From assembly GCA_964540995.1 (NCBI GenBank), contig CAZIOU010000003.1, positions 576 to 64,575 of the forward strand: a stretch of 64,000 nt of DNA. Reading direction: 5' to 3'. The position numbers and the translations under genes are program-made. Source of the DNA: an uncultured Gammaproteobacteria bacterium. GTDB taxonomy: Bacteria; Patescibacteriota; Patescibacteriia; UBA1558; 2-01-FULL-52-15. This document shows, one piece after another, positions 8,554-64,000 of the stretch (position 1 is the stretch's first letter; the number at the start of each line of letters is the position of its first letter). Below the pieces are notes generated by a model, which was not told the origin of the DNA, did not search any database, and worked only from the letters and a program-made list of their open reading frames with translations.

Positions 8554-8640
8554 TCGGGGATCGCCACCCTTCGCTAAAGCTTCGGGCGGCAGGTCTAATG
8601 GTAGCCCACCAGAGGCGGGCAGGGACGACACGCGCGAGAA
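8554..8640 (+). pseudogene. decayed tRNA-Gln-like fragment with internal hairpin insertion
   Basis: Begins TCGGGGATCG (identical to the tRNA-Gln 5' end at 9025) and contains a D-loop-like AGGTCTAATGGTAG, interrupted by CCACCCTTCGCTAAAGCTTCGGGCGGC. Confidence 0.4.
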
Positions 8641-8728
8641 TTGTATTTAAAGTCAGGTATTGGCAGAGAAGAGAAACAAAAAATTATTACTTACTCGGGG
8701 ATCGTCTAATGGTAGGACGACAGGTTCT
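8638..8728 (+). repeat. 91-bp direct repeat copy 1 (leader plus tRNA-Gln 5' half to the anticodon loop)
   Basis: Near-identical (2 mismatches) to 8968-9058. Ends ...ACAGGTTCT inside the anticodon loop, then diverges into a perfect palindrome CCTGCCTGCCGGCAGGCAGG. Confidence 0.7.
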
Positions 8729-8766: not shown

Positions 8767-9039
8767 ATGGAGTTTAAAATGAAACACTGGGTATATATTC
8801 TGATAAGTGAGACTACAAAGAATTGGTCATATGTAGGTAGTACTTCAAACTTGCAAGAACGCCTATATAGACATAGTATTGGTAGGGTTAGTTCTACGAA
8901 AAGCAAGAGACCGTTGAAATGTATTTACAGTGAGATTCATTCTGACAGAACGCAGGCTTATAAACGGGAATTGTATTTAAAGTCGGGTATTGGTAGAGAA
9001 GAGAAACAAAAAATTATTACTTACTCGGGGATCGTCTAA
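8767..9039 (+). CDS. GIY-YIG nuclease family protein (small YhbQ/UPF0213-like)
   Basis: 'WVYILISE..SYVGSTSNLQERLYRH' GIY-YIG core. The ATG lies in a degenerate T-arm-like GGGTTCGATGG; the C-terminus is encoded by repeat copy 2. Confidence 0.75.
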   Translation: MEFKMKHWVYILISETTKNWSYVGSTSNLQERLYRHSIGRVSSTKSKRPLKCIYSEIHSDRTQAYKRELYLKSGIGREEKQKIITYSGIV

Positions 9040-9058
9040 TGGTAGGACGACAGGTTCT
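8968..9058 (+). repeat. 91-bp direct repeat copy 2 (overlaps GIY-YIG 3' end and the intact tRNA-Gln 5' half)
   Basis: See copy 1. Confidence 0.7.
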
Positions 9059-9098
9059 GGTCCTGTTAATTGGGGTTCGAGTCCCTATCCCCGAACCA
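9025..9098 (+). tRNA. tRNA-Gln (anticodon CUG)
   Basis: Hand-folded: acceptor UCGGGGA/UCCCCGA, U8, D-stem GUC/GAC with loop UAAUGGUAG, anticodon stem ACAGG/CCUGU with loop UUCUGGU, T-arm UGGGG-UUCGAGU-CCCUA, discriminator A, encoded CCA. Confidence 0.85.
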
Positions 9099-9162: not shown

Positions 9163-9303
9163 CTTTTAGGGACTCGAACCCGGGAAGGGGTCGGGAAACG
9201 GGAGTTTCCCGTGGCGGAAGTACTGAAACCGAAGGGTTTCAGAATCACGCTTTAGCGTGATTGGGTTCTAGGAGTGAAACGACGGAGTCCCTATCCCCGA
9301 ACC
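9163..9303. pseudogene. tRNA-Gln-derived fragments (inverted T-arm copy; degenerate copy with insertions ending GAGTCCCTATCCCCGAACCA)
   Basis: 9163-9185 is the reverse complement of the tRNA-Gln T-arm. 9195-9303 has UCGGGAA ... UUGGGUUC[16-nt insert]GAGUCCCUAUCCCCGAACCA, identical over the last 20 nt to the real tRNA 3' end. Confidence 0.4.
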
Positions 9304-9422
9304 ACCCTGCGTCGTCCAAAGACGACTTCGGGTGGCCTCTGGCCATCCGACAACCGAAGGTTGTGCAGGGTAGTAACCCGAAGCTTTAAAGCGAAGGGTT
9401 ACAGGTTAGCAATTTATACATA

Positions 9423-36517: not shown

Positions 36518-37079
36518 AGAGGAGTGTTAATTATTAGTTGTTGTGGACAACTATAGTATGTCGCACAATATATGTAAAGCGACATGTAAATAATAACGTA
36601 TCCCAATAAAGCCGTCAAACGCTACAGTAATGATCGTTTTGACCCTGTGCCCTACTACGTAAATCAAATTTTGAATTCAAGGTACAATATGACCTGAAAT
36701 TTCAATTTGTACGCTCTTCTATCGGTTTCGTCCGTTACTCCTATCTCTTTAGCTACGACGCATTTAAAGCCTCGTTTGAGGATGGCTACGGTACTCGGTA
36801 CTAGGTGCTCGTTTAGATCTATTAGGGCATCTATGACCTAAGTCGCTCTTAGTGACACTAGCTAGCACTTATTCAGTTAATGCGCTTTGGGTCATCTATG
36901 ACCTGAATTGGTAAATTTAAATTCAACTGACGTTCGTGTTGGATAGATCAGACCACTACGGCTCGTTTCGAATTATGTTTAGGAGGTATGTCGCCTCCAA
37001 AAATGCACTGGTGGGCTATGTGTCGTAAAATATATTGCTGCATGGGACTCGGTACTAGGTGCTCGGGACTCGAAAAGAA

Positions 37080-39368: not shown

Positions 39369-39456
39369 CGTTAGTTATTAGTTACATGTTACTAGTTATT
39401 AGGGAAGAGCTAATGAATCAATCTGACCCTAATAACTAATACCTAATAACTGCTCG
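39369..39456. repeat. TTATTAGTTATTAGGG / CCCTAATAACTAATA inverted-repeat spacer
   Basis: Arms at 39373-39400 and 39428-39452. Related copies at 45715-45755 and 55130-55200. Confidence 0.6.
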
Positions 39457-45668: not shown

Positions 45669-45834
45669 AAAATAGAAGAAAGTAGAATGTAGAAAGAAGT
45701 AAGGGAAAGAAGCTAGAGTTTGCCCTTCCCTAATAACTAATAACGAATGACGAATATCAATTCAACCAGCTAGATTGCTTCCCTCATTGTCATGGTTCTA
45801 CAAGCTCACCATGACAATTCGGTCGCAATGACAG

Positions 45835-51194: not shown

Positions 51195-52347
51195 TAAGCT
51201 GGTTAGCCTTGGTGGTCCAATCAGGTAAGGTTTGGAGCTGATTGTAAGCGGCTTCGCCTAATTGTTGGCGCACTTCTGGATGGTCTAGTAGGTATTTCAG
51301 ATTAGCACTAATCGCTTCCAGTGAGGTGCTATCAACCAACAAACCGCTAACTTCGTGCTGCAGTATTTCTTCGGCTGAAGTATGTTGACCAGCGATGATC
51401 GGCAAGTGGAAATGAGCAGCGTCGAGATAGACGATGCCATAGCCTTCGATATCAGCACCAAGATTCAGTGTGGGTAACATGAAGATATCGGCTGCCTGAT
51501 AGTAGTTAGCAATATCCTCGTCACTGACATCAGTTAGGAAGGAAACCTGATCATTAATTTTCAGTTCGGTTGCGAGATGCTGTAAGGAAGCTAATTCTGG
51601 ACCGTTGCCAACGATGAGATAGTGACTATCATCACGACCCAAGGCATTCATCGCTTTCAACATCAGTTCATGATTCTTGCGTTTCACTAGACGACTAACA
51701 GTAAGGATGATCTGTTGGCCGACAAACTGTTGCTTGATAGCGGCGACACGCACTGGATCGGCTACCAGTCGTCCTGTCATGTACGGTGTGATCACGGTTA
51801 ATTTATTGGCCGGCAAAAGTGGCGCTACGATGGATCGGGTTGTTTCGCTGTTGACGATGACGTGATGGGCATTGGTCAGTAGACGAATGGCAGTCGTGCG
51901 ATCTTTGGCCAAAGCCAGATTGATATCCAGACCGTGTAATGACAAAACGTAGGGAAGGTTTAATTTCTTGCCGACTTTTTCCGCGATCAAGCCCAGCGGC
52001 AAAATGTGTGGTGTGAAAATAAGTTCAATCTTTTGTTGCTGACACAATTTCTTGACATTACGATAACCAGTTAGCCAGCGCGGGCGGAAGAGCTTTCCGA
52101 GAAGAGGTACTCGGTGCTCGTTACTAGGTACTCGGGAAGACGCGGGCGACCGAGTCGCGAGTAGCGAGTCGCTAGTACCGATTTGTCCGTCTCGAGCACC
52201 AAGTGACGAGTCCCCAGCCCCGCTCTTCATATCATGCGCCACAATATAATTTTGCTGTGGCAAATGTGAAAATAAACCGTAGCAATAATTGGCAATGCCG
52301 CCGCGGAAGGGGAAATATTCGTGTGTGAGGAGAAGGGTTTTTTTCAT
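51178..52347 (-). CDS. family-1 (GT4-like) glycosyltransferase carrying an in-frame insertion of repeat element B
   Basis: N-terminus 'MKKTLLLTHEYFPFRGGIANY' and C-terminus 'EGYGIVYLDAAHFHLPIIAG' are typical GT4. Residues about 42-85 (SGAGDSSLGARDGQIGTSDSLLATRSPASSRVPSNEHRVP) are low-complexity and are encoded by the element at 52090-52215. Confidence 0.8.
   Translation of the reverse strand: MKKTLLLTHEYFPFRGGIANYCYGLFSHLPQQNYIVAHDMKSGAGDSSLGARDGQIGTSDSLLATRSPASSRVPSNEHRVPLLGKLFRPRWLTGYRNVKKLCQQQKIELIFTPHILPLGLIAEKVGKKLNLPYVLSLHGLDINLALAKDRTTAIRLLTNAHHVIVNSETTRSIVAPLLPANKLTVITPYMTGRLVADPVRVAAIKQQFVGQQIILTVSRLVKRKNHELMLKAMNALGRDDSHYLIVGNGPELASLQHLATELKINDQVSFLTDVSDEDIANYYQAADIFMLPTLNLGADIEGYGIVYLDAAHFHLPIIAGQHTSAEEILQHEVSGLLVDSTSLEAISANLKYLLDHPEVRQQLGEAAYNQLQTLPDWTTKANQLNAILS
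52085..52215. repeat. palindromic MITE-like element, copy B (inside a CDS, inverted relative to A)
   Basis: GGTACTCGGTGCTCGTTACTAGGTACTCGGGAAGACGCGGGCGACCGAGTCGCGAGTAGCGAGTC...GAGTCCCCAGCCCC. Shares GAAGACGCG..CCGAGTCGCGAGTA.CGAGTC and CCCAGCCCC blocks with revcomp(A). Confidence 0.7.
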
Positions 52348-54970: not shown

Positions 54971-55194
54971 TGATGCTCCTTAGGGTGAATCTGTATCTGG
55001 TTGTTAGATACTATTTCACCGGAAGAAGGTGCTAAGATAGGCCATTTCTGCGAGATGGCAGAACATTCCTATCAGAGCGGTGTAAATGAACTGTTGCAGT
55101 TTTACTATGGATGGAGTCATTTGTCAATCGTTATTAGTTATTAGGGTAGGTTGCCCTCTCTTCCCGAATAACGAGTAACTAATAAAAAATATCT

Positions 55195-60837: not shown

Positions 60838-60913
60838 AGGATGTAGGTTGGTAGATTGGTAGGCGGTAGGTTGGTAGATGAAATAGTCTGGCTACTTCCT
60901 ACCTCCTGACGGA

Positions 60914-61147
60914 CTACTTTCTATAAGTAATTCTGCCTTTGGTTAAATCATAGGGGCTGATCTCCATGACTACCCGATCGCCAGGGATAATACTGATACG
61001 GTGCAAGCGCATCTTACCGGACAAATGAGCCAGAATCATCTGACCGTTGTCGAGTAGGACCTTGAAGGTGGCGTTCGGTAGTTGTTCATCTACCACGCCT
61101 TCCATCTGGATAAAGCCCTTGCTGTCTACAATTCCTGATTCTGACAT
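60914..61147 (-). CDS. infA: translation initiation factor IF-1 (start may be the internal Met at about 61105)
   Basis: 'GKMR..RI.I.PGD.V..E.SPYDL.KGRI.YR'. Confidence 0.9.
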
Positions 61148-61385
61148 GTATTGCTGATAACAAAAAAATACTTCTTCATCTGTGGTGCCACGTATTTAAC
61201 TGGTTCTCACACCCATGAAGAACAGCGTATTTTGCGCTAGTTGTTGATAATTTTTCAAAGCAGGATAATTATACAGTTTTGGTGGGAGTTGTCAAGAAGA
61301 AGTACGGAGTAAGACGTAAAGCGTACGGGGCGTTGTGTCACTGGAAATGAAAGGGCCTGTTTAGAGCCTAATTTACTACTTGCCC

Positions 61386-61413
61386 TTGACAATATTCCTT
61401 GATTATGTATAAT
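61386..61413 (+). promoter_or_regulatory. near-consensus sigma70 promoter with extended -10
   Basis: TTGACA (61386-61391), 16-nt spacer ending TG, then TATAAT (61408-61413). Confidence 0.6.
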
Positions 61414-61419
61414 ACCAAT

Positions 61420-61582
61420 ACCTTGAGGCAACGGCCCGCTCTAGGTACGACTAGCCCCTGATGGCTAGCCGGCAAGGCCATTATACTAATAGCGTACATT
61501 TTTGCACCTCCTCTCCCCGTGACGCTACCCTCGAGGTAGCCGGCGGCGACTATTCACTTCTGATAGTCGCCGTTTTATTTTA
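61420..61582 (+). ncRNA. candidate small RNA (about 160 nt) between a consensus promoter and an intrinsic terminator
   Basis: No SD-preceded ORF; only a 38-codon ATG frame without an RBS. Hairpins CUAGCC-CCUGAU-GGCUAG and GCUACC-CUCGA-GGUAGC, then a terminator. Confidence 0.4.
61543..61582 (+). terminator. rho-independent terminator (sequence repeated at 63137)
   Basis: GGCGACTATTCACTTCTGATAGTCGCCGTTTTATTTT. Confidence 0.8.
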
Positions 61583-61674
61583 ACTTGACGCTCCCCTTCC
61601 ATTATTGTACGATAGCGAATCCTTTGAATATCCCGAGGCGTACACACTCTTCCCCTTCGAAAGGAAGGTTTCTC

Positions 61675-61977
61675 ATGGATTTCATCACCAAGGCACTGTT
61701 GGATAACAAAGGTGTTTTACCCCTAGTTGCTTCCGAGACTCTTCCTCAAACGGAGATCGTCACCGCGGTGGCCTTTCTCCGGGCTGGAGGGTCGGCAGCT
61801 CAGCTGTCCATCCGTTTCCACGATCTGGGTAAAGATGATGAGGCTCGGATGAGTCAACTCAGGATTCGAGTCACGAAGATTCTGGCGTCACTTAGTGATA
61901 CGGGCGAAGTTCTTGGTGCAAGACAAAAACGCGAGGCGGAATACGTCACGTATACACTGACCCGCGAGGTACACTGA
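61675..61977 (+). CDS. hypothetical protein (start moved to the Met with SD GAAAGGAAGG)
   Basis: Good RBS, own promoter-like TTGACG..TACGAT upstream, and a terminator at about 61995-62045. Confidence 0.5.
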   Translation: MDFITKALLDNKGVLPLVASETLPQTEIVTAVAFLRAGGSAAQLSIRFHDLGKDDEARMSQLRIRVTKILASLSDTGEVLGARQKREAEYVTYTLTREVH

Positions 61978-62156
61978 TACAAAAGTACCTTTAACCTTCA
62001 CCAATGCGGCCAACGGCGGCTAGCCACCATACTAGCCGCTTTTTTAATTTAGCTATTGACATTTGCCTCACCTTGTGGCAAATTAATCAATCGACAAATC
62101 GTCGTTTGTACACTTACAATTGATCCAATCCCAAACCTACCAACGGAGGTAAACCC

Positions 62157-62642
62157 GTGACTACCAGGCGTATTGTTGGCTTCGTTTCGCTCGGAATTTT
62201 TGTTATCAGTCTGTGGATCTTTCTGGCCAATACCCTTCATTATGTAGAGAAACATGAGCTGGGATACACCTTCGATCGTTTCAATGGCGAAGTTCAGATC
62301 GTCCCCCACACAGGGTGGGTGGTCAGGAATCCGTTTCATTACTCCGTTTATACCATCGATCTCCGTCCGTATCAGGTATCTATTACCGCTGCTACTGCTA
62401 CGACAGGAATCAGCGATCGCATTCTTAACGCCAAGTTGGTGAGGTTCAATCCTGCGGGATTGCAAACCTTCATTTCCTGGCATGGATGCGGAGCTGGTGG
62501 GAGCGTCGGTAACTTGAAAGAGATTCTCAAGTGTTACGCTTTTGACAAGCAGAATGGGGCGGATTGTCCTTTCGTGACGGTAGTGAGCGAACTCTCTCCC
62601 GATCAAGCGCCTATCGTGCCTCAACCGCAGGAGAATAAGTAG
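62157..62642 (+). CDS. N-terminally anchored membrane protein (paralog 1, weak SPFH-like resemblance)
   Basis: GTG start with GGAGGT SD; 'GWVVRNPFHYSVYTIDLRPYQVSI'. Confidence 0.55.
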   Translation: MTTRRIVGFVSLGIFVISLWIFLANTLHYVEKHELGYTFDRFNGEVQIVPHTGWVVRNPFHYSVYTIDLRPYQVSITAATATTGISDRILNAKLVRFNPAGLQTFISWHGCGAGGSVGNLKEILKCYAFDKQNGADCPFVTVVSELSPDQAPIVPQPQENK

Positions 62643-62650
62643 GAGCCAAC

Positions 62651-63133
62651 ATGCAACGTGAGGAATTTCTCGACCGTCTGCATCAGCTTCGGCGGGCACG
62701 ATGGTTGAAATATACCATGATTGTGTTGCTGGTACTGCTACTGCTTCGAGTCAACCTGTTGACCTACAGCGGTCCGACCGAGATCGGTATTGCTCGCAAT
62801 GTTCTGACAGGACAGACCTGGCCGATGCCTAAAGGGTTGCGTTTCAAACCGCCGTGGGTATTGGTGCCACACATCGATACACGTCCTATGCGAGTCTCAG
62901 TTGATTCGGCTGGTCATGGATGGAGCGCCAAGCTGGTGCAGTTCGTACCATCAGAATGGGAGTCATTCGTGAAAACGGAAGGCTTCTACTTCTGGTGGTG
63001 GGCCAATCGGATTTCCTTCAACAGCGGCTACCGCGATGAACACCGCGGGATCAAGGATATTTTCCGAGGCTATGCCTACGGGGTCAAGCAATATCCGTTC
63101 CTAGTGGTGCTGAAGGATGTGGATCAAGAATAG
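62651..63133 (+). CDS. N-terminally anchored membrane protein (paralog 2)
   Basis: AGGAG SD; 'GLRFKPPWVLVPHIDTRPMRVSV' parallels the upstream protein. Confidence 0.55.
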   Translation: MQREEFLDRLHQLRRARWLKYTMIVLLVLLLLRVNLLTYSGPTEIGIARNVLTGQTWPMPKGLRFKPPWVLVPHIDTRPMRVSVDSAGHGWSAKLVQFVPSEWESFVKTEGFYFWWWANRISFNSGYRDEHRGIKDIFRGYAYGVKQYPFLVVLKDVDQE

Positions 63134-63136
63134 CAA

Positions 63137-63175
63137 TGGCGGCGACTAGTCACTTCTGATAGTCGCCGTTTTATT
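63137..63175 (+). terminator. rho-independent terminator (second copy of the 61543 terminator)
   Basis: GGCGACTAGTCACTTCTGATAGTCGCCGTTTTATTTT. Confidence 0.8.
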
Positions 63176-63322
63176 TTGTGGAGGTTGACAAAACTTCTAC
63201 CGCAGGAGCTATAGTAGGAGTATAGGGCAATGTTCTTTAATAGACTAAAAGTCAGGTGAGCGTCACGATCACCGAGTAAGACTCGTACAATCGGGCTAAA
63301 TGGGCATAAAAGGAGCTTTATA

Positions 63323-63505
63323 ATGTCGGAAGAAAAGGAAGCAGAAAAGAAGGAGGAGGCTGGTCTGCCGGTTGAGGGCGAACAGCAACTCTACCTGTGT
63401 TATGACTGTAAAAAGATGAAAGCCAAGGGAACACACTTTGACAACAACACACGATTCGAGTGTGATGACTGTAGATGGTGGCGAATAGTTGTTATCGAAG
63501 ATTAA
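63323..63505 (+). CDS. small zinc-ribbon protein
   Basis: CYDC..17..CDDC four-cysteine pattern, acidic N-terminus, AAGGAG SD. Confidence 0.45.
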   Translation: MSEEKEAEKKEEAGLPVEGEQQLYLCYDCKKMKAKGTHFDNNTRFECDDCRWWRIVVIED

Positions 63506-63544
63506 ACAGGTGTAGACGGTAAACCAGAAAGGTGGAATTCTGTC

Positions 63545-63898
63545 ATGAGTAGCCACGATGACAAGGAGTTTGGTTGGTCTGATGTCGCTGCGATCGTCGT
63601 AGGGGCAGTTATTTTCTCTCCAATCATTATACCGGCTCTTGCAGCTGAACGGAGTCGACAGACTGCAAAGGAAGCTCAGAACAGACGGTTGGAGCGTGAA
63701 AGATCGAGAGCAGCTCTTGATGCCGCACGTAGCGCCTCCAGTTTCGACTCTGATTCAGATGAAGAAGATGCAGCTGAGGATGATGAAAGTGAATCCGTCA
63801 GGTGTCGCTGTGGATCAACCACTGACCTCCTGGAGCGCGATGGATACTATGAATGTCTCTCGTGTGACAATGACAACAACGCGGGTTGCGATGATTGA
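63545..63898 (+). CDS. small TM protein with acidic linker and C-terminal zinc ribbon
   Basis: TM 'VAAIVVGAVIFSPIIIPALAA', 'CRCG..CLSC', followed by a terminator at about 63905-63950. Confidence 0.45.
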   Translation: MSSHDDKEFGWSDVAAIVVGAVIFSPIIIPALAAERSRQTAKEAQNRRLERERSRAALDAARSASSFDSDSDEEDAAEDDESESVRCRCGSTTDLLERDGYYECLSCDNDNNAGCDD

Positions 63899-64000
63899 GA
63901 ACATCGCCTTACGGCCGCTGGCTTATGAGCTAGCGGCCGTTTTATTAATCCAAATGAAAAGCCGCCTCCCGTGATAAGACGAGAAGCTAAGCTTTTCATC

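Follow-up and report, generated by a model that had tools for sequence, protein, structure and literature searches.

Positions 61386 to 61582 of the stretch of 64,000 nucleotides (nt) analysed here, to which we refer as the window, carry a promoter-to-terminator unit that lies divergent from the infA operon and opens a hypervariable islet. We tentatively read this unit as the gene of an accessory, strain-specific and independently transcribed small non-coding RNA (sRNA) of about 150-165 nt, a reading that we consider possible and stop short of calling probable. It is based on the sequence itself: a perfect promoter and a strong terminator face the same way, and no open reading frame (ORF) with a ribosome-binding site (RBS) lies on the plus strand, in agreement with the stand-alone transcription unit that an earlier reading of the same DNA (the original prediction) had described.

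Promoter, terminator and predicted transcript

The following features delimit the unit and its borders.

61386-61413, plus strand: unit promoter, TTGACA-16-TATAAT, with the -35 box at 61386-61391 and the -10 box at 61408-61413 (12/12 in the consensus scan)
61420-61582, plus strand: predicted primary transcript of about 150-165 nt, with its start placed from the -10 position and its end in the U-tract
61542-61582, plus strand: intrinsic terminator T1, a stem-loop at 61542-61574 (13 pairs, 7-nt loop) followed by TTTTATTTT to 61582, with the tail UUUUAUUUU
63138-63177, plus strand: second copy of T1 (39/40 identical), at the end of a gene pair for proteins of 161 and 160 amino acids (aa)
61585-61613, plus strand: promoter of the downstream gene for a 100-aa protein, TTGACG-17-TACGAT (9/12), which together with T1 makes a recombination joint at 61543-61630
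60914-61147, minus strand: infA, divergent from the unit
61295-61268, minus strand: sigma-70-type promoter of the infA operon, TTGACA-16-TATAAT (12/12), which drives infA-rpmJ-rpsM-rpsK-rpsD-rpoA

In a consensus scan of both strands of the 64 kb, only two sites reached 12/12, namely the promoter of the unit and that of the infA operon. The description of the former as the best promoter in the window is therefore right with regard to its score but not to its being the sole best, since it is tied with the minus-strand promoter at 61295-61268. Nor is it a canonical extended -10 promoter, as had been proposed, because its TG immediately adjoins the TATAAT (TGTATAAT) instead of forming TGnTATAAT, and the scan accordingly scored a TG before the second hexamer as absent. 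The canonical strong terminator predicted for 61543-61582 is present at 61542-61582 with a stem of 13 bp, and its proposed reuse at 63137 was confirmed by the 40-nt module at 63138-63177, which differs by a single mismatch and for which zero copies were expected in shuffled sequences. The repeated module extends even further than had been suggested: T1 plus the next promoter (61543-61630) also occurs in another strain behind a different gene, being 91% identical to positions 557-470 of the related locus L003, where it follows the 160-aa gene and precedes a different one.

The distance from promoter to terminator is about 130 nt and the non-coding stretch between them about 125 nt; the ends of the transcript were placed from the geometry of these two elements. 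The unit, whose position divergent from infA agrees with the original prediction, thus has what a generic stand-alone sRNA gene has, that is, its own promoter, a Rho-independent terminator and no coding potential on the plus strand.

Predicted fold and a C-rich loop

The minimum free energy of the whole unit was -55.8 kcal/mol, with a z-score (z) of -3.4 against shuffled sequences. The predicted fold comprises the following elements.

61420-61428, plus strand: 5' strand of a closing helix of 9 bp, ACCUUGAGG, paired with 61529-61537 (pair probability 0.88)
61529-61537, plus strand: 3' strand of the closing helix, CCUCGAGGU, overlapping the alternative local hairpin GCUACC-CUCGA-GGUAGC (61524-61540)
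61433-61479, plus strand: hairpin domain 1, with the core CUAGCC (61451-61456) / GGCUAG (61463-61468) at pair probabilities of 0.83-0.98
61490-61527, plus strand: hairpin 2, with a 19-nt apical loop at 61500-61518
61505-61518, plus strand: C-rich motif CACCUCCUCUCCCC, resembling an anti-Shine-Dalgarno (anti-SD) sequence and predicted to be single-stranded in the loop of hairpin 2

Two clean hairpins had been claimed for the unit. The one at 61451-61468 was recovered with the probabilities given above, but GCUACC/GGUAGC turned out to be negligible (probability of about 0.001) because its 3' arm is taken by the 9-bp helix with the 5' end. The first 8 nt of CACCUCCUCUCCCC equal what we take to be the usual anti-SD sequence of the bacterial 16S 3' end, CACCUCCU, which may not be that of the host's own 16S. 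These 8 nt were predicted to be jointly unpaired with P = 0.87, and all 14 nt with P = 0.71. The GC content of the body is 57%, compared to about 43-45% in the non-ORF DNA of the window (top 4%); the GC richness that had been ascribed to the surrounding islet is marginal (47.5-50% versus 45.8% for the window).

According to these predictions, transcription would run from about 61420 to the U-tract of T1, and the 5' end of the RNA would pair with the segment just before the terminator, leaving two internal hairpins, of which hairpin 2 would display CACCUCCUCUCCCC in its open 19-nt loop. This exposed anti-SD-like loop appears to be the best-supported functional feature of the unit. The loop might pair with GGAGG-type RBSs of mRNAs and lower their translation, which is the most speculative step of the proposed mechanism and, taken on its own, unlikely. 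In a survey of the start regions of the window, most core genes, including rpoA, rpsK, rpsM and infA, had no SD within 20 nt of the start (for example at the starts 59016, 60150, 60636 and 61147), and strong GGAGG-type SDs were concentrated in the islet and in other accessory or hypothetical genes (for example at the starts 61675, 62157, 62651, 63323, 63545, 44233 and 44943). Because of this distribution, such an RNA would act mainly on accessory mRNAs. A literature search on Patescibacteria and Shine-Dalgarno returned nothing on such an RNA.

The unit is the first cassette of an islet between alaS and infA

In a scan of the GTDB representatives with InfA, the closest relatives were Patescibacteria, the best being a metagenome-assembled genome of Candidatus Komeilibacteria with 94% identity; by its sequence, the host belongs to the Patescibacteria and is Komeilibacteria-like. 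In most Patescibacteria loci that we retrieved, infA is immediately preceded on its own strand by an ORF of about 600 aa, which is alaS where checked (Pfam, sequence). In the clade of the window, a hypervariable islet (61148-64000 in the window) is inserted between alaS and infA, with the unit as its first cassette and each module flanked by a sigma-70-type promoter and an intrinsic terminator of its own. The features of the islet that matter for the comparison with other loci (numbered with L) are listed below.

61331-61385, plus strand: left flank of the cassette; homology to conspecific strains ends at 61330/61331 (blastn), and only L012 continues through
61675-61977, plus strand: 100-aa gene, with its start codon about 90 nt after T1
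62157-63133 in the window, 4426-5403 in L019 and 5001-5432 in L098: 161-aa/160-aa gene pair
L005 2164-2331 (minus strand), L015 7665-7841 and L016 605-769: gene of a 55-aa protein with two hydrophobic (transmembrane) segments, MKRKVAIAFGLASIGCVVGAPLAKHYILLLFVGLFFARVWGW..., with its own strong promoter and terminator

Contigs with exactly the same InfA are 96-98% identical to the window from infA to 61330 and diverge beyond this position. Three of the loci (L003, L006 and L007) jump from there directly to the 161-aa gene (62053 onward), and four others (L001, L002, L004 and L008) have an unrelated 91-aa gene in place. In L005, a different cassette is followed by the same 100-aa gene, and likewise in the more distant L015 and L016; this replacing cassette consists of a promoter, the 55-aa protein and its own terminator, and the unit shows no homology to it in L005 and L015 beyond the promoter consensus. 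The promoter of the 100-aa gene (61585-61613) is retained in L005 and L015 behind the different cassette, and in L017 the 100-aa gene stands directly behind yet another promoter. The only other contig that carries the unit is L012 (Logan DRR783857), in which 252 of 252 positions are identical and in which the 100-aa gene and the 3' end of the 160-aa gene have become fused by a deletion. Judged from these comparisons, the islet is made of promoter-gene-terminator modules that are swapped, lost and fused at repeated joints, with the unit as a gene-less module.

No Pfam domain above threshold was detected in the 161-aa/160-aa pair and the other neighbours, and a protein search with the 100-aa neighbour returned one 90%-identity cluster. 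The 161-aa family had more than 150 matches, the named ones from Patescibacteria lineages, and included one homologue (48% identity) on a viral contig of IMG/VR. In a small hairpin, CCTTCGAAAGGAAGG, at 61654-61674 just before the ATG, the SD of the 100-aa gene (AAGGAAGG) is base-paired to a CCUUC that lies upstream of it; this hairpin is conserved in L005, L015 and L017 and may be a translational control element.

On the other side of the unit, the infA promoter is kept in all related loci, including L015, L018 and L019. The two perfect divergent promoters have the -35 flank TACTTnnnCTTGACAA in common, which forms an inverted repeat (61289-61304 and 61377-61392, 72 nt apart) and suggests a duplication or a shared upstream element. 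Periodic repeats of the CGTAA type are found at 61300-61330, directly upstream of the -35 box of the infA promoter; they differ in number and sequence among strains (L001, L015, L017 and L019), and the breakpoint of the cassette lies at their end. Short periodic repeats, GGTAGGTTGGTAGATTGG, were also seen between rpmJ and infA at 60838-60880.

Searches for relatives and targets of the unit

Searches with the unit by blastn, nhmmer and tblastx covered about 1 Mb of related loci and returned L012 only, plus copies of T1; at the translated level, tblastx found nothing similar in any related locus. Neither IMG/VR nor the GTDB species representatives contained exact 20-27-mers from the unit or T1, and the JGI metagenomes yielded one chance match on an unrelated contig (L014). 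Distant blastn searches of GenBank phages and PLSDB plasmids gave chance matches of 20-30 nt only, no unit-like element was present upstream of the closest 161-aa homologues (L099-L102), and a scan of 70 infA loci for a promoter plus a terminator returned nothing, its criteria being too strict. Look-ups of the exact RpmJ, of the 100-aa protein and of P0004 found no records. At the Rfam gathering threshold, the whole window contained nothing but the tRNA at 9025, and ARAGORN detected neither tRNA nor tmRNA in the region. The housekeeping RNAs 6S, SRP, tmRNA and RNase P were rejected as identities of the unit, as none matched at the gathering threshold or at E <= 10 and as the unit is absent in most conspecific strains.

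On the side of possible targets, RNAduplex against all start regions of the window returned no convincing specific partner, the top matches being spurious ORFs. The 15-mer complement of the loop was not enriched, and short inverted repeats shared with untranslated regions (UTRs) and terminators of the islet (I12, I14) stayed at chance level.

ORF-less units at the same position in other loci

Two more distant loci carry units without ORFs in the slot divergent from infA.

L019 5525-5735, minus strand: stand-alone unit without an ORF, about 200 nt long, with the infA promoter on one side and that of a 162-aa gene on the other, and with a strong terminator
L020 1470-1762, minus strand: ORF-less unit of about 290 nt, divergent from infA, with TTGACA-17-TATAGT including a TGn, and a terminator

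The InfA of L019 is 79% identical to that of the window and its 161/160-aa pair 72% identical at the DNA level. Its unit has a TTGACA -35 box, for which the scan found no consensus-spaced -10 box and a TGn-TAGATA at 17 nt was read by eye; its fold had a z of -5.1 and it had no Rfam match. As in the window, its terminator resembles another one of the same genome, here the one behind the 159-aa gene. The 3' 66 nt of the L019 unit align with the unit of the window (local alignment, z = 5.65, 0/300 shuffles), covering the pre-terminator hairpin segment and the terminator, and the interiors of the two are unrelated. The first six bases, ACCUUG, are the same in both units and in each are able to pair with the sequence that immediately precedes the terminator. 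The L020 unit, from a locus whose InfA is 76% identical, folded with a z of -5.15 and likewise had no Rfam match. In L018, which is the closest GTDB representative, the position is occupied by something else. The L019 and L020 units are possible structured RNAs. They make it more likely that RNA genes occupy this slot, but as the two or three sequences concerned are unrelated or barely related to one another, this is a lead rather than a proof.

Evidence against an sRNA and alternative explanations

Several results weigh against the sRNA reading. A cmscan search of Rfam, proposed as a check in the original prediction, matched no family to the unit, and even at E <= 10 the region 61100-64000 returned noise only. 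No specific mRNA target stands out in the window. The body without the terminator (61420-61541, 122 nt) had a z of -1.3, with 23 of 200 shuffles equally stable, and the opposite strand of the body a z of -1.4; the description of the RNA as hairpin-rich thus holds for the whole unit but is without statistical support for the body, which folds no better than shuffled sequences, the signal coming mostly from the terminator. Most strains with an identical InfA lack the unit, which is dispensable for this reason. Only two copies are known, and as the one in L012 is identical, there are no compensatory changes to examine. Between the window and L012, about 3% of the sites differ in the ribosomal-protein genes, about 6% in the 100-aa gene and none over 61315-61626, which counts for the sRNA reading, but the block of near-zero divergence spans 61026-61626 and starts inside infA, so that recent recombination would explain the near-identity as well as selection. 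The likeness to L019 comes largely from a shared terminator family and GC-rich low-complexity sequence, and the L020 unit is not detectably similar to the units of the window or L019. In sum, the stand-alone unit of the original prediction is well founded, whereas the sRNA function it proposed meets a missing Rfam family, a body fold that is not significant and absence from most strains.

The main rival is that the unit is a gene-less remnant, in which recombination or deletion joined the promoter of a cassette to T1 and the coding part was lost or scrambled, so that it may be transcribed without having a function. This explanation is somewhat unlikely, yet it draws on much of what was described above: deletions of this kind occur at the locus, as the fusion in L012 illustrates, T1 is a repeated joint that is present twice in the window and, with the next promoter, behind another gene in L003, and the protein-coding 55-aa cassette that other strains have here starts with a similar promoter, CCTTGACAA...TTATG. 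The insignificant fold of the body and the dispensability of the unit among strains fit as well. Against a remnant, no trace of a parent coding sequence was detected by blastn, nhmmer and tblastx in the related loci or among 1.8 billion protein representatives, the promoter is a perfect consensus and the terminator intact, and the structured ORF-less units that L019 and L020 have in this slot speak for an RNA gene that is maintained, and not for debris.

The remaining alternatives concern reading frames within the unit and the gene behind it. Stop codons break five of the six frames between the promoter and the terminator, and two ORFs were considered.

61499-61368, minus strand: antisense ORF of 43 codons, coding for a 43-aa peptide at 61499-61371 and preceded by AGGAGGTG-caaaa-ATG
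61461-61583, plus strand: ATG ORF of 40 codons without an SD, which starts inside hairpin 1 and reads through the terminator at its end; judged to be no gene

The statement that no RBS-preceded ORF is present therefore stands for the plus strand but not for the minus strand. With the antisense ORF, the unit could form an antisense pair in the layout of a type I toxin-antitoxin system, in which the plus-strand RNA covers the SD and start of the 43-aa peptide and blocks its translation. The SD in question is one of only three AGGAGGTG sites in the window (both strands counted), the frame stays open for 43 codons, the promoter of the plus strand is much stronger than the sole candidate on the minus strand (TTCAAA-16-AATAAT, 9/12, 61628-61601), and in other strains the cassette found here instead codes for a small membrane protein. 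We nevertheless consider such a pair improbable. The anti-SD motif automatically gives an SD on the opposite strand, where the C-rich motif reads as AGGAGGTG, and the start and 43-codon frame would arise by chance in about 3-4% of cases by a rough estimate, which is not negligible. In addition, the peptide is without a long hydrophobic segment of transmembrane length, the ORF would run through the plus-strand promoter, and no gene was called for it in L012. A HMMER search against the 1.8 billion representatives matched two proteins, both of which are spurious because they are evident translations of CRISPR-repeat arrays (IPPRAGRCIEI repeats). The antisense ORF has probably arisen by accident from the plus-strand anti-SD motif.

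It is very doubtful that the unit serves as a cis-acting leader, in which conditional read-through of T1 as an attenuator would add to the expression of the 100-aa gene. The orientation is the same, only about 90 nt separate T1 from the start codon, and the upstream promoter is with 12/12 much stronger than the 9/12 promoter of the gene itself. The 100-aa gene, however, retains both its promoter and its 5' UTR where another cassette (L005, L015 and L016) or none (L017) precedes it, and T1, with its long GC-rich stem and good U-tract, has a sequence that also ends an unrelated operon. No convincing anti-terminator was seen on reading the sequence by eye and no riboswitch or leader family matched in Rfam. 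A riboswitch or attenuation leader was rejected on the same grounds, with a downstream gene that possesses a conserved promoter of its own and is also present where the unit is missing; for this reason the unit is also not simply the 5' UTR of the gene at 61675, a case that the original prediction had named as one possible refutation.

Finally, translation of the plus-strand ORF into a small protein is hardly credible: the frame, announced as having 38 codons but in fact 40 codons long, is the sole open one on the transcribed strand, but it lacks an SD whereas the neighbouring islet genes all have strong ones, its ATG lies in the loop of hairpin 1, its last 13 codons are the terminator read in frame, and it has neither a homologue (protein search) nor a Pfam or PHROG match.

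Comparison with known systems

The known RNAs nearest to the unit in its proposed mode of action are the Cuckoo/CcsR sRNAs and C-rich-loop sRNAs such as RsaE. The Cuckoo/CcsR sRNAs have two hairpins, each with a CCUCCUCCC anti-SD motif in the loop, are found beside DUF1127 genes in Alphaproteobacteria and in many cases arise by processing of a UTR (PMC8034643). With Cuckoo/CcsR (RF02791), the unit shares a short RNA, an intrinsic terminator, a CCUCCUC-type motif in a hairpin loop and the proposed pairing with RBSs. It differs in having one C-rich loop (CCUCCUCUCCCC at 61507-61518), its own promoter and a Patescibacteria host, with no DUF1127 neighbour. Membership was rejected on every point compared: the covariance model (CM) score, how many hairpins bear the motif, the neighbouring genes and the taxon. 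The CcsR1 CM gave 16.7 bits (E = 0.96) against a gathering threshold of 65.3, and the match at 61524-61578 covered the terminator region and not the motif.

The RsaE/RoxS-type sRNAs of Firmicutes are promoter-to-terminator genes whose unpaired C-rich stretches bind G-rich SD regions. The likeness of the unit to them lies in the stand-alone gene and the C-rich loop, without similarity in sequence or CM (Rfam scan), and in contrast to RsaE, which is conserved across a phylum, the unit is strain-specific. With regard to its organisation, the islet is reminiscent of phage 'morons', independent promoter-gene-terminator modules that are inserted between conserved genes: its modules have their own promoter and terminator and are present or absent between the conserved alaS and infA. 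Unlike morons, the islet lies on the chromosome; it showed neither structural nor integrase genes of phages, and the unit carries no gene. Links to viruses amount to the one viral-contig homologue of the neighbouring 161-aa family, the unit itself having no match in IMG/VR or GenBank phages. Type I toxin-antitoxin systems are similar in that a small RNA with a strong promoter is fully antisense to a short SD-led ORF, but the ORF product, which has no homologues, differs from the typical hydrophobic toxins, and the candidate promoter of the ORF is weak (9/12).

Other repeats in the window

Imperfect intergenic palindromes of short periodic units, of the GTTATTA/TAATAAC and GGTACTCGG types, recur across the window and may be bidirectional terminators or a genome-specific repeat family. 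They were found at these positions:

39371-39450
55124-55186
36790-36811
37044-37065
52105-52139
45728-45751

At the gene of tRNA-Gln(CTG) (9025-9098), the upstream flank and the 5' half are duplicated 330 nt upstream with 97% identity (8635-8728 and 8965-9098), and the last 22 nt are repeated exactly 206 nt downstream (9285-9306). From their arrangement, these duplications resemble the traces left by an integration or duplication event at a tRNA gene.

Significance

Going by the predictions above, the sRNA reading is plausible, and the unit is for now an ordinary sRNA candidate of very narrow distribution in a poorly studied phylum. Patescibacteria (the candidate phyla radiation) have, to our knowledge, hardly been studied for regulatory RNAs, and an RNA gene with a clear promoter and terminator would offer an easy point of entry. 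A long shot is that the units of the window, L019 and perhaps L020 belong to a fast-evolving, lineage-restricted family of non-coding RNAs in the slot divergent from infA of Komeilibacteria-like Patescibacteria, whose anti-SD loop would in this strain selectively silence SD-led accessory or foreign mRNAs; if true, this would amount to a discrimination between self and non-self at translation initiation, the core genes of the host being largely SD-less. The context may outweigh the RNA, as it offers a clean natural case of cassette swapping at terminator/promoter joints beside a highly expressed ribosomal-protein operon. This swapping in the islet, together with the dichotomy in SD usage, is arguably more instructive than the RNA candidate itself.

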